In this document: positions 61,707-64,000 of the stretch, piece by piece | Numbering within the stretch: position 1 is the stretch's first letter | Layout of the letters: the number at the start of each line of letters is the position of its first letter | NCBI GenBank assembly: GCA_021201815.1 | Contig: JAJQEC010000090.1 | Coordinates: 107,370 to 171,369 of the forward strand | Source: Candidatus Azobacteroides sp. | GTDB lineage: Bacteria > Bacteroidota > Bacteroidia > Bacteroidales > WRGA01 | Length of the DNA: 64,000 nucleotides | Direction of reading: 5' to 3' | Position numbers and translations under genes: made by a program | The notes under the pieces: model-generated | What the model saw: the letters and a program-made list of their open reading frames with translations, nothing else | Told to the model about the DNA's origin: nothing | Database searches by the model: none

Positions 61707-61780
61707 GGCCCCGTAGCTCAACTGAATAGAGTATCTGACTACGGATCAGACGGTTACAGGTTTGAATCCTGTCGGGGTCA
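61707..61780 (+). tRNA. tRNA-Arg(ACG)
   Basis: GGCCCCG..TCTGA-CT-ACG-GA-TCAGA..TTTGAATC..CGGGGTCA; TACTTTTG promoter element at 61687-61694. Confidence 0.96.
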
Positions 61781-61783
61781 CAG

Positions 61784-61820: not shown

Positions 61821-62118
61821 CTTTTCTATAAATTCTTAAATAATAAGAGGTTAATAGTAGTATTTAAATATAATAATACTTTTACTCTATAGATATTTAT
61901 TATAGTAAAATGTTTTATTTTTCAGGAAATAAGATAATTTCAGCTAGAGAATACTGAAAAATAATATTCCTTAAAAAAGAAAAAACAGGTTAGCTTTTAT
62001 GTGTAAAAGCAAGCCAACTGTTTAAAATAAATTAGAAATATAAGAATCTTTATTGAGATTCCCATATCTATCTTTGTAGAAAATATTTTAAAGGAGTAAT
62101 CTAACTGACAACCTACAT

Positions 62119-62529
62119 TTATATGCATAATTTATCCCATACATATAAAAACATAAGGATATAAGAAGGAATTAATGCTACTAATTTCAAAATGAAACAT
62201 ATCCATGAAGGAATATTCCACCATTCTTTTTCATTAACCCTTATTTTTTCGTCATCTACACTTTTATTTTTTTTTCGATTCTTACAGTAAACTCCATACC
62301 AAATAATTGTGGAAATAAAATACTGCATAACATCTAAAAACAAAGAGACAACTAAAAAAATTAATGGCCATAATAATTCTTTTGGAACAGAAGAAGAAAT
62401 TTCATCACTGCCACTTACCCGAAAAATCCAGATAATACCAATACCCGCAAAAGCTAATTGACGATTAATATCACTCAGCTTTCCTGAAATTACTTCATAA
62501 GCATCCCTTATTTCTGATAATTTCATCAT
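62119..62529 (-). CDS. Small membrane protein (about three hydrophobic segments), function unknown
   Basis: LAFAGIGIIWIF, LLWPLIFLVVSLFLDVMQYFI, WICFILKLVALIPSYILMFLYVW. Confidence 0.85.
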   Translation of the reverse strand: MMKLSEIRDAYEVISGKLSDINRQLAFAGIGIIWIFRVSGSDEISSSVPKELLWPLIFLVVSLFLDVMQYFISTIIWYGVYCKNRKKNKSVDDEKIRVNEKEWWNIPSWICFILKLVALIPSYILMFLYVWDKLCI

Positions 62530-62606
62530 TTTGGAGATCTTGGGCCTGTTCCTTTAGTTACTTGGGGTTTAGGGCGTGGTTGTGAATTAGATTGAGATTT
62601 AGACAT
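62526..62606 (-). CDS. Putative 26-aa micropeptide MSKSQSNSQPRPKPQVTKGTGPRSPK
   Basis: ATG after AT-rich leader; stop overlaps next start (ATGA); paralogous to 62654..62803. Confidence 0.65.
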   Translation of the reverse strand: MSKSQSNSQPRPKPQVTKGTGPRSPK

Positions 62607-62653
62607 TTTTATATTATTTAATAAATTTATATTATAGAAATCATTACTATATT

Positions 62654-62803
62654 TTATTTTTTCCTTAACGGAGATCTTGGGCCTGTTCCTTTTGATTCAG
62701 TTATGCGGGTTTTTTGAGATGAGTAGTCCTCTCGTTGACGAACTCTTGGTTTAGGAGCTGGTTGTGATTTTGGTGATGGTTTACTTTTTCCCTTTTCGGA
62801 CAT
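62654..62803 (-). CDS. Putative 49-aa micropeptide MSEKGKSKPSPKSQPAPKPRVRQREDYSSQKTRITESKGTGPRSPLRKK
   Basis: ATG after AT-rich leader; GC-richer than flanks; shares SQPxPKPxV and KGTGPRSP with the neighbour. Confidence 0.65.
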   Translation of the reverse strand: MSEKGKSKPSPKSQPAPKPRVRQREDYSSQKTRITESKGTGPRSPLRKK

Positions 62804-62964
62804 AATTTAGATTTTAATTAATAAATATAAATATAATAATATTTTACATTTAAAAATATATAAAATGAAATGAATTAATGATATAAAATTTCTTTCTTAT
62901 AAATGAGAAAATCACAAGAAATATCTTCAAAGTCCTTGAGCATTCTCTAAGATCTCAATAAGGA

Positions 62965-63012
62965 CCGTGTGCTGAGGCAGCACGGCTAAGGACATGGCGC
63001 CGCTCCGCGGCT
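62965..63012 (-). repeat. 48-bp REP-like double hairpin, copy 2
   Basis: Reverse complement reads agccgcggagcggcgcca-N6-tagccgtgctgcctcagcacacgg. Confidence 0.85.
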
Positions 63013-63163
63013 TGTTGGTGAGATAGCCATACTATGGTTTTAATTCTTCCCTGCCATGAGGGAGGACAGAAATAGTAAAATTTGAAAAGCCAGAAGGAAA
63101 TCAGTTGCAGAAAACGGATCGGATAAAAGGAAGATAGCTTTATATTGATAAGATTATCTTTAA

Positions 63164-63211
63164 AGCCGCGAAGCGGCGACAGATAAATAGCCGTGAGGCC
63201 TCAGCACACGG
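63164..63211 (+). repeat. 48-bp REP-like double hairpin, copy 3 (inverted relative to copy 2)
   Basis: agccgcgaagcggcgaca-N6-tagccgtgaggcctcagcacacgg. Confidence 0.85.
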
Positions 63212-63222
63212 CTCTCTTTATA

Positions 63223-64000
63223 TCAGAACATAAATGTCATTCCTTTATCCTGATTTTTTTTATAATTATCGATTTCTTTTTTAAGGGTTTTCAGAAGCTG
63301 GCCTGTCATAAATTCTCTAAAAGGAATATTTGTTCCTTCGTCTACGGCCTGATTGAGAGATTTTATATAATTATCCCGGTCTTCTTTGTACACCTTACTA
63401 AGAATCAAATCTTTGTAAGCTTGTATGTAATTCATTAATAACCGGGAAGTTCTACCGTTACCATCTAACCAGGGATGGATAGTGACAAGATTCAAATGGG
63501 CATCAAAACTTAAATTATAAATATCTTCTATTCCATCCACCTCCTTTAAACGGATATTCAATTCTTCACACAGTCGGCTTACACTCTCCGGAACCTTTCT
63601 GAAATTCAGATAAGACTGTCCGCTCATACCGGCAGTAACCCCACATAAACGAAATTCGCCTTTAGAGGAATCAAAGTTCCCATTTATCGTATTCATCATG
63701 CTTCCGGTAGATTTCATTACGAAAGCATTTAATTCCATTAAAAACTCAGGCGTTACAGGAGTTTTATCTCTTGCTTTCCGTAAGGCAAAAACATAGGCAT
63801 CTTTCAAGTCTTTAGTCATCAAATGATAGGAAAAAGACTTTCCCTTTGCTACGATATCTTCATCCAGTAGCAGTTGGGTATCCAGCTCCGTTAATGTGGA
63901 ACCTTCAATAGCGGTTGAATGGGCAATAATAGAATATAGATAAAATTTATCATGATCTACTGTATTGTCTATATTAAACTTTTTATAAAGCGCTATTAGT
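63223..64000 (-). CDS. Fic-domain protein, 5' end outside the window
   Basis: HPWLDGNGRTSR Fic motif; frame stays open to the window edge and includes HSTAIEGSTLT. Confidence 0.92.
   Translation of the reverse strand, partial: LIALYKKFNIDNTVDHDKFYLYSIIAHSTAIEGSTLTELDTQLLLDEDIVAKGKSFSYHLMTKDLKDAYVFALRKARDKTPVTPEFLMELNAFVMKSTGSMMNTINGNFDSSKGEFRLCGVTAGMSGQSYLNFRKVPESVSRLCEELNIRLKEVDGIEDIYNLSFDAHLNLVTIHPWLDGNGRTSRLLMNYIQAYKDLILSKVYKEDRDNYIKSLNQAVDEGTNIPFREFMTGQLLKTLKKEIDNYKKNQDKGMTFMF

Follow-up and report, generated by a model that had tools for sequence, protein, structure and literature searches.

Our analysis of a 64,000-nucleotide stretch of a Candidatus Azobacteroides sp. genome (contig JAJQEC010000090.1; "the window" hereafter means this whole stretch) identified a small minus-strand cassette in which two short open reading frames (ORFs), both encoding basic and proline-rich peptides, precede the gene of a 136 amino acid membrane protein. 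The unit that recurs upstream of this membrane gene in other genomes is a short C-terminal tail, TGP(R/K), and not a family of peptides. Three kinds of control, based on HU paralogues, DUF2853 genes and pattern searches, place the tail exclusively beside the membrane gene, and we therefore conclude, as our firmest conclusion, that tail and membrane gene are functionally linked.

A C-terminal tail upstream of a membrane gene

The cassette comprises the following features.

62803-62654, minus strand: tail-tagged peptide 1 (ORF call and composition), 49 amino acids with 15 Lys or Arg and seven Pro residues; sequence MSEKGKSKPSPKSQPAPKPRVRQREDYSSQKTRITESKGTGPRSPLRKK
62686-62675, minus strand: TGPR tail of peptide 1, followed by SPLRKK and the stop codon
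62606-62526, minus strand: tail-tagged peptide 2 (ORF call), 26 amino acids with six Lys or Arg and no Asp or Glu; sequence MSKSQSNSQPRPKPQVTKGTGPRSPK
62549-62538, minus strand: TGPR tail of peptide 2, followed by SPK and the stop codon
62529-62119, minus strand: membrane gene, 136 amino acids, three predicted helices
62804-62870, minus strand: AT-rich leader of peptide 1, read from the sequence
62607-62653, minus strand: AT-rich leader of peptide 2, similar to that of peptide 1

Both short ORFs are present where an earlier note on this DNA had placed them, and the traits that it had listed can all be read in the sequence: an MS start and the blocks SQPxPKPxV and KGTGPRSP common to both peptides, an in-frame gap between the two blocks, AT-rich leaders, and an identical string of 23 nucleotides (AAAGGAACAGGCCCAAGATCTCC) that codes for the KGTGPRSP end. 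The stop codon of peptide 2 overlaps the first ATG of the membrane gene in an ATGA, again as described, and 47 nucleotides lie between the end of the first tailed ORF and the next start. The match between the two tails exceeds chance: across the whole 4.2-Mb genome, TGP[RK] followed by zero to nine C-terminal residues is found in four of 31,604 ATG-started ORFs of at least 20 amino acids, and two of these four are the ORFs of the window. Sequence able to code for K-G-T-G-P-R occurs at two places only in this genome, both of them in these ORFs, and a reversed control pattern gave no matches.

The recurrence of the tail was then scored at other loci of the membrane protein family with a strict pattern, x[TSG]GP[RKMLW] with zero to nine residues before the stop codon. 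An ORF with a strict tail lies directly upstream at 32 of 45 genome loci, its stop codon falling between -23 and +7 nucleotides from the membrane gene; the 45 loci come from Bacteroidota, Pseudomonadota, Chloroflexota, Acidobacteriota, Planctomycetota, Nitrospirota, Verrucomicrobiota, Fibrobacterota and others. Among the remaining 13, eight have degenerate forms (STGSK, STGCK, DTGAG and similar), four have none, and one has no upstream end. In metagenome contigs (80 loci, 74 of them with enough upstream DNA), 55 of the 74 usable loci are tailed, or 46 of 60 distinct upstream sequences. Viral loci carry the strict tail in four of 18 cases, and two more have variants. The extended consensus is T-x-x-T-G-P-(R/K), often with a Gly before it, followed by zero to nine residues. 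The presence of GTGP(R/K) ORFs upstream of homologues was the check that the earlier note had named beforehand for its claim that the peptides are real and are partners of the membrane gene, and the claim withstood it.

The tail is conserved at the protein level. Its Thr is encoded by ACT, ACA or ACC, its Gly and Pro by all four of their codons, and its Arg by AGA, CGA, CGC, CGT or AGG; this synonymous variation indicates that selection acts on the protein. Conservation is thus not confined to nucleotides, third positions of the tail being free to vary, which bears out the expectation of conservation at codon level. When peptide 1 is aligned with tailed peptides of other loci, only M1, T40, G41 and P42 are invariant or nearly so. 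The earlier description of two paralogous micropeptides accordingly holds for the two ORFs and their shared motif; there is no micropeptide family, the conserved unit being an eight-residue C-terminal tail.

The proteins that carry the tail are otherwise unrelated. They include disordered Lys/Pro peptides, HU, Hc1, HC2-like proteins, H1-like proteins with AKKP repeats, DUF2853 (three loci) and DUF2188. The Pfam family Bac_DNA_binding (HU) is found upstream at eight loci, with a strict tail in five of them; by their sequences we also read the upstream proteins of L036 and L071 as HU-like, and one further tailed body as a putative Myb-like helix-turn-helix protein, to which Pfam assigns no family. 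Two tailed ORFs in tandem precede a single membrane gene in the window, L008, L015 and L023, and one natural in-frame fusion joins a tailed peptide to the membrane protein (P0082). As separate observations, the tail is tandemly duplicated upstream of the membrane gene in L191/L192 (GTSGTGPRGTSGTGPRR-stop), and L064 (3581-3980) has one long frame with three repeats, each consisting of M(N/S)QNGTGPR and a small beta-rich unit, so that the motif is N-proximal rather than C-terminal there. In L043 (1-3400), a family member without its N-terminal part adjoins a reverse transcriptase gene of the group II intron type, and this copy looks disrupted by a mobile element.

The composition of the tailed peptides raises the possibility that they are cationic proline-rich antimicrobial or bacteriocin-like peptides, encoded with a small membrane protein for immunity or export. 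Operons for two-peptide or leaderless bacteriocins combine antimicrobial peptides with an immunity protein and usually a transporter, and the gene layout of the window, with two tandem genes for small cationic peptides followed by a small polytopic membrane gene, is similar. Peptides 1 and 2 are strongly basic and proline-rich, and Pro/Arg/Lys-rich tailed proteins are also found in L034, L133 and L142. We nevertheless consider this reading very unlikely: many of the tailed proteins elsewhere are folded cytoplasmic DNA-binding proteins (HU, Hc1), the peptides are hydrophilic, disordered-looking and not amphipathic with the tail alone conserved, they have no leader and no double-glycine site, and no transporter or peptidase adjoins the cassette in the window.

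The controls for exclusivity compare tail carriers beside the membrane gene with members of their families elsewhere. In five genomes with a module of the HU type there are 18 HU paralogues; all five that stand beside a membrane gene (one of the five membrane genes being cut by a contig end) have the tail, and none of the 13 others does. DUF2853 behaves in the same way, as all three of its members adjoining the membrane gene end in an appended ...GTGPR tail, and none of 22 DUF2853 genes in 301 Bacteroidota genomes is tailed or has the membrane gene downstream. The exact pattern coding for the tail occurs once per genome, at the module, in seven of eight genomes searched, the eighth coding for EGTGPR, which is outside the pattern. 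These counts bear directly on the idea that the tail merely extends its carriers by a generic element for binding DNA in the minor groove and that the neighbourhood of the membrane gene is functionally meaningless. The tail may resemble SPKK and AT-hook motifs, which bind the minor groove, Lys and Arg flank it, and DNA-binding proteins carry it. Its absence from 13 other HU and 22 other DUF2853 proteins, against five of five and three of three beside the membrane gene, and an association that holds across phyla, phages and plasmids, leave this idea strongly disfavoured and the least probable of those considered here.

The membrane protein family

The 136 amino acid protein has hydrophobic segments at residues 24-41, 47-77 and 105-132 and a basic loop at 82-105, which support its prediction as a membrane protein with the N-terminus in the cytoplasm. 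Its AlphaFold model consists of three long antiparallel helices (residues 4-39, 50-87 and 102-135) with a predicted local distance difference test (pLDDT) score of 92. W34 and K115 are invariant across the family, and S19, R23, D66, Y70 and Y123 are conserved in at least 90% of members.

The family is large. The protein has 40 close matches, mostly in Bacteroidia, and at least 1,468 representatives of clusters at 50% identity are retrieved at E ≤ 0.001, 659 of them at E ≤ 1e-10. In addition to the genome loci, there are 18 loci in viral contigs and at least 508 confirmed stretches in metagenome contigs. A search for longer homologues (292-2000 amino acids) returned two C-terminally extended proteins, neither of them an HU fusion.

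Curated libraries do not cover this family. The 136 amino acid protein has no match in Pfam (none at E ≤ 1), NCBIfam, PHROGs or PADLOC, and lies outside every recognised toxin family in Pfam, PADLOC and NCBIfam. In PADLOC-DB v2, the membrane protein and both peptides match no family at E ≤ 1, and only the neighbouring Fic gene does. DUF7420 (PF24195) is the only curated family touched by relatives, and it too is without an assigned function: two of 18 relatives match it below threshold, and the best of them, P0003, reaches 25.6 bits where 27 are required, in an alignment that spans the first two helices. The window protein itself has no DUF7420 match at E ≤ 1, and the family was not found in 301 Bacteroidota genomes. 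Structure searches gave a similar picture, with nothing at E ≤ 0.001 by Foldseek against the PDB (the weak top rows include DgkA), generic helical bundles with Z of at most 9.4 in a wide VIA-align search, and unnamed clusters only in the ESM Atlas, where the nearest named cluster is PycTM at 0.79, below the lead level of 0.9. For transmembrane effectors of the Pycsar and CBASS type (PycTM, SLATT), Pfam gave no match either.

Possible roles of tail and membrane protein

Our tentative proposal, which we hold at somewhat less than even probability, is a mobile module of the conflict type in which the tail serves as a transferable tag and connects small proteins, most of them DNA binders, with the membrane protein. 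The window genes would be one copy of this two-component module. The first component would be the conserved inner-membrane protein of about 130 amino acids, with three helices and a cytoplasmic N-terminus; the second would comprise at least one small cytoplasmic protein whose gene lies directly upstream of the membrane gene, with translation of the two coupled. These clients, of which most are polycationic or bind DNA (disordered Lys/Pro peptides, HU, Hc1 and H1-like proteins), would share nothing except the tail, a short linear tag through which they may act on, or be held by, the membrane protein. The module would thereby bring together a partner that binds nucleic acid and an effector or receptor in the membrane, and two roles can be envisaged: a membrane toxin or abortive-infection effector restrained by peptides, or membrane-tethered DNA binders that exclude incoming DNA. 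We infer the physical binding, the binding site, the toxicity and the anti-phage effect that these roles imply. A tag and its membrane partner agree with the exclusivity of the tail, the histone-like clients, the presence of multiple clients, the P0082 fusion and the nature of the carriers.

The module is carried by temperate phages and a plasmid, and it also sits in defence islands and in patchy islets of chromosomes; this suggests a role in conflict or maintenance as the most likely function. In a temperate Vibrio phage (Vinavirales), the pair stands directly after a gene for a LexA/cI-like repressor, on the same strand. The tailed member there is an unannotated ORF of 88 amino acids ending TRSGGPKSPKVVKL (L113 5728-5994; PQ189331.1, 13957-14223), which lies between the repressor gene and an annotated membrane-protein gene and is probably a gene missed in the public record. 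A 341-kb Vibrio megaplasmid also carries the module, and phage-like contigs have it beside repressor-like genes. Among relatives of the window genome it is rare, with five of 401 genomes of the same order and none of three genomes of the same genus. The earlier note had placed the cassette beside tRNA-Arg; the cassette is not peculiar to this site, the module being a mobile one found in many phyla, in phages and on a plasmid.

Several results weigh against the proposed tag. A role in translation, acting in cis, is equally compatible with the finding that tailed proteins always occur linked to the membrane gene. No tailed partner is present at 40 of the 112 loci with enough upstream DNA, duplicates included, and at ten phage-like loci a tail-less partner of 77-81 amino acids (phrog_10608) takes its place. 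Fusions are rare, with none in 121 further loci scanned, and P0082 could be a sequencing artefact; in its AlphaFold model the tailed extension is disordered (pLDDT 55-67) and undocked, and the model, as such, gives no information on docking. The charge of the residues before TGP was anticorrelated with that of the N-terminal helix of the membrane protein in a first set (rho = -0.58, n = 30; nine of 38 pairs were left out where the start of the membrane gene was not matched by the pattern). This anticorrelation, which is confounded by relatedness among the sequences, was not replicated in an independent metagenome set (rho = -0.16, p = 0.42, n = 29). Moreover, the N-terminal helix is equally conserved in the tail-less clade and in its tailed relatives (nine versus five sequences), so that no dedicated site for the tail is identified, and no cytoplasmic position of the membrane protein differs between tailed and tail-less close relatives. 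Finally, one count speaks for a defence context, PADLOC models at 1e-8 matching 25 of 148 neighbouring proteins, at 18 of 44 loci, but it has no background rate, and several of its matches are to generic ATPase, kinase or helicase domains.

A further-reaching version of the proposal appears unlikely to us. TGP(R/K) would be a portable cytoplasmic address tag that hands histone-like or polycationic proteins to a three-helix receptor, the whole forming a nucleoid-to-membrane immunity device of mobile elements. The membrane-tethered DNA binders may catch incoming DNA or, in a second form, the membrane protein may be a lethal effector that is released when a phage disturbs the DNA-bound clients.

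The position of the tail immediately before the stop codon suggests a different explanation, namely that TGP(R/K) acts on the ribosome as a nascent peptide, stalling it or slowing termination just before the stop and so setting translation of the downstream gene. The short peptides would then be leader peptides, and on HU or DUF2853 the leader would have merged with the upstream gene. Arrest or leader peptides such as SecM, MifM and VemP are encoded upstream of genes for membrane biogenesis, and SecM-type arrest motifs end in Gly-Pro, as the tail does. The module is similar in that the conserved part of its upstream ORF is a short motif at the C-terminus with Gly-Pro at its end, and in that a membrane-related gene starts shortly downstream: the motif lies zero to nine residues from the stop codon, which overlaps the next start or lies within about 25 nucleotides of it, and conservation is confined to the last eight or so residues, as in leader and arrest peptides, and is at the level of amino acids. 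The absence of tailed ORFs unlinked from the membrane gene, the near absence of in-frame fusions, and a conserved surface of the membrane protein that is unchanged where the tail is absent would also be expected. However, a pure cis-regulatory tag leaves unexplained why the upstream proteins are overwhelmingly histone-like or polycationic. The first of the tandem tailed ORFs in the window ends 47 nucleotides before the next start, placing its Pro codon about 70 nucleotides away; in L064, where three repeats have it on their N-terminal side, the motif is 21 residues away from the stop; and P0082 reads through into the membrane protein. The ORFs of the module further differ from SecM, MifM and VemP in that they lack any signal or transmembrane segment whose pulling force could relieve arrest, can be whole folded proteins, and may stand in tandem, and the downstream gene is no translocase component. 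We regard control by a nascent peptide as improbable, though worth serious attention, and lean towards a membrane effector held by peptides (toxin-antitoxin or anti-phage) ahead of leader peptides that act on the ribosome.

Known systems offer partial parallels to the tag-and-membrane-partner proposal. Type II antitoxins neutralise a growth-inhibiting toxin by direct binding and consist of a DNA-binding domain and a disordered C-terminal tail that binds the toxin. The module is likewise a small, tightly coupled operon with a variable and often DNA-binding upstream partner, a conserved short C-terminal tail and a conserved downstream protein; its upstream domains are freely swapped, and its distribution on phages, plasmids and islands is patchy. 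Unlike in type II toxin-antitoxin systems, the downstream protein is predicted to be integral to the membrane and belongs to none of the known toxin families, the DNA binders are non-specific nucleoid proteins rather than operator-specific repressors, and there are up to two or three partners. RexA and RexB of lambda, a cytoplasmic protein and its small polytopic partner in the membrane, form a prophage-borne abortive-infection pair marked by phage exclusion with membrane depolarisation, and the place of the Vibrio phage pair directly after a repressor gene, on the same strand, recalls them; the module, however, has no PADLOC or PHROGs match, its membrane protein would have three helices and not four, and the partner is a tail-tagged small basic protein.

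In the behaviour of the tag, the parallel is with the C-terminal sorting tags LPXTG, PEP-CTERM and GlyGly-CTERM and their dedicated membrane enzymes sortase, exosortase and rhombosortase. In those systems, the sorting signal is a motif followed by a hydrophobic helix and a basic cluster, on proteins with an N-terminal signal peptide. The likeness is that a short C-terminal motif is found on unrelated proteins only where a given membrane protein is encoded, often adjoining. The TGP tails differ in having no hydrophobic stretch, their clients are cytoplasmic DNA binders without a signal peptide, and the membrane partner is a predicted three-helix bundle of 130 amino acids with no recognisable catalytic fold. 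By analogy, the module appears most like type II toxin-antitoxin systems or RexAB in layout and carriers, and most like sortase and exosortase systems in the behaviour of its tag.

Judged by titles and the opening lines of abstracts, the literature gave no description of the TGP tail or of the membrane family, and none of the matches listed for GTGPR, judged likewise, concerns bacterial tails. For DUF2853, a Bartonella transcriptome study was listed, and for DUF7420 no paper was found. As the module departs from each of these systems in testable features and we found it described in neither the literature, judged in this way, nor curated libraries, we regard it as a system not yet described. 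Its membrane family, large and spread over many phyla, phages and a plasmid, is matched by no curated family and no structure, and the gain of a tail by unrelated proteins only beside one membrane gene is the genomic signature behind discoveries of the sortase and exosortase type. If the tag does dock nucleoid proteins at the membrane, it would represent a new principle for connecting DNA binders to the membrane and probably a new system of defence or maintenance; should it prove to be a motif for ribosome arrest, it would stand out as unusually short and as phylogenetically universal.

Genomic surroundings of the module

In the window, the cassette forms a small chromosomal islet between a tRNA-Arg gene and a Fic gene, and is surrounded by the following features.

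61973-62023, minus strand: terminator-like hairpin about 95 nucleotides past the stop codon of the membrane gene, with 13 pairs, a single bulge and a U-run after it
61707-61781, plus strand: tRNA-Arg(ACG), downstream of the membrane gene on the opposite strand
62955-63220: doublet resembling repetitive extragenic palindromic (REP) sequences, "REP-like doublet", two inverted GC-rich hairpin elements of about 48 nucleotides (blastn)
63223-64000, continuing to about 64038 in the contig, minus strand, upstream of the cassette: Fic-domain gene, 271 amino acids, matching the PADLOC models SoFic and PDC-S04

The hairpin (-12.4 kcal/mol, z = -2.3) is matched in folding energy by three of 200 shuffled sequences and is absent from the list of a simple terminator scan; it is likely to mark the end of the operon. 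A scan for sigma-70-type promoters gave nine sites, not above shuffled sequences (mean 7.2), and the Bacteroidetes-type TAnnTTTG does not occur on the minus strand upstream of the short ORFs. Compared by synteny for an insertion at tRNA-Arg, the three same-genus genomes have the tRNA and the peptidase gene of the flank on separate contigs.

Neighbours matched by PADLOC at other loci include TIR proteins, type III and type IIG restriction enzymes, SoFic with a type I methylase, AriAB-like proteins, RmrA and several PDC families, and Pfam adds AbiU2 and Mrr. The order Fic gene, tailed protein, membrane gene is found both in the window and in L038 (SoFic, E = 1e-114, with a tailed HU); two cases are not evidence of an association. 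On the viral contigs of a Bacteroides-phage-like clade (L052-L058 and L060-L062), phrog_10608, which belongs to no Pfam family, replaces the tailed partner; its gene overlaps the start of the membrane gene or ends just ahead of it, and DNA methylase genes surround the pair, which is on the opposite strand.

Both flanks named in the earlier note, the tRNA-Arg gene and the REP-like doublet, are present, the doublet being a dispersed genomic repeat with 148 blastn matches across the window genome. Each of its elements matches the Rfam family Acido-Lenti-1 weakly, at 22.7 and 20.9 bits, below the gathering score of 37. A second REP-like pair lies at G000:C93:171491-171690, just beyond the end of the window on the far side of the Fic gene, which is thus bracketed by repeats. 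The next gene past the Fic gene (L068 3770-5878, in G000:C93 beyond the window) encodes a 702 amino acid BspA-type leucine-rich-repeat protein with a C-terminal sorting domain of the type IX secretion system, consistent with a Bacteroidota host.

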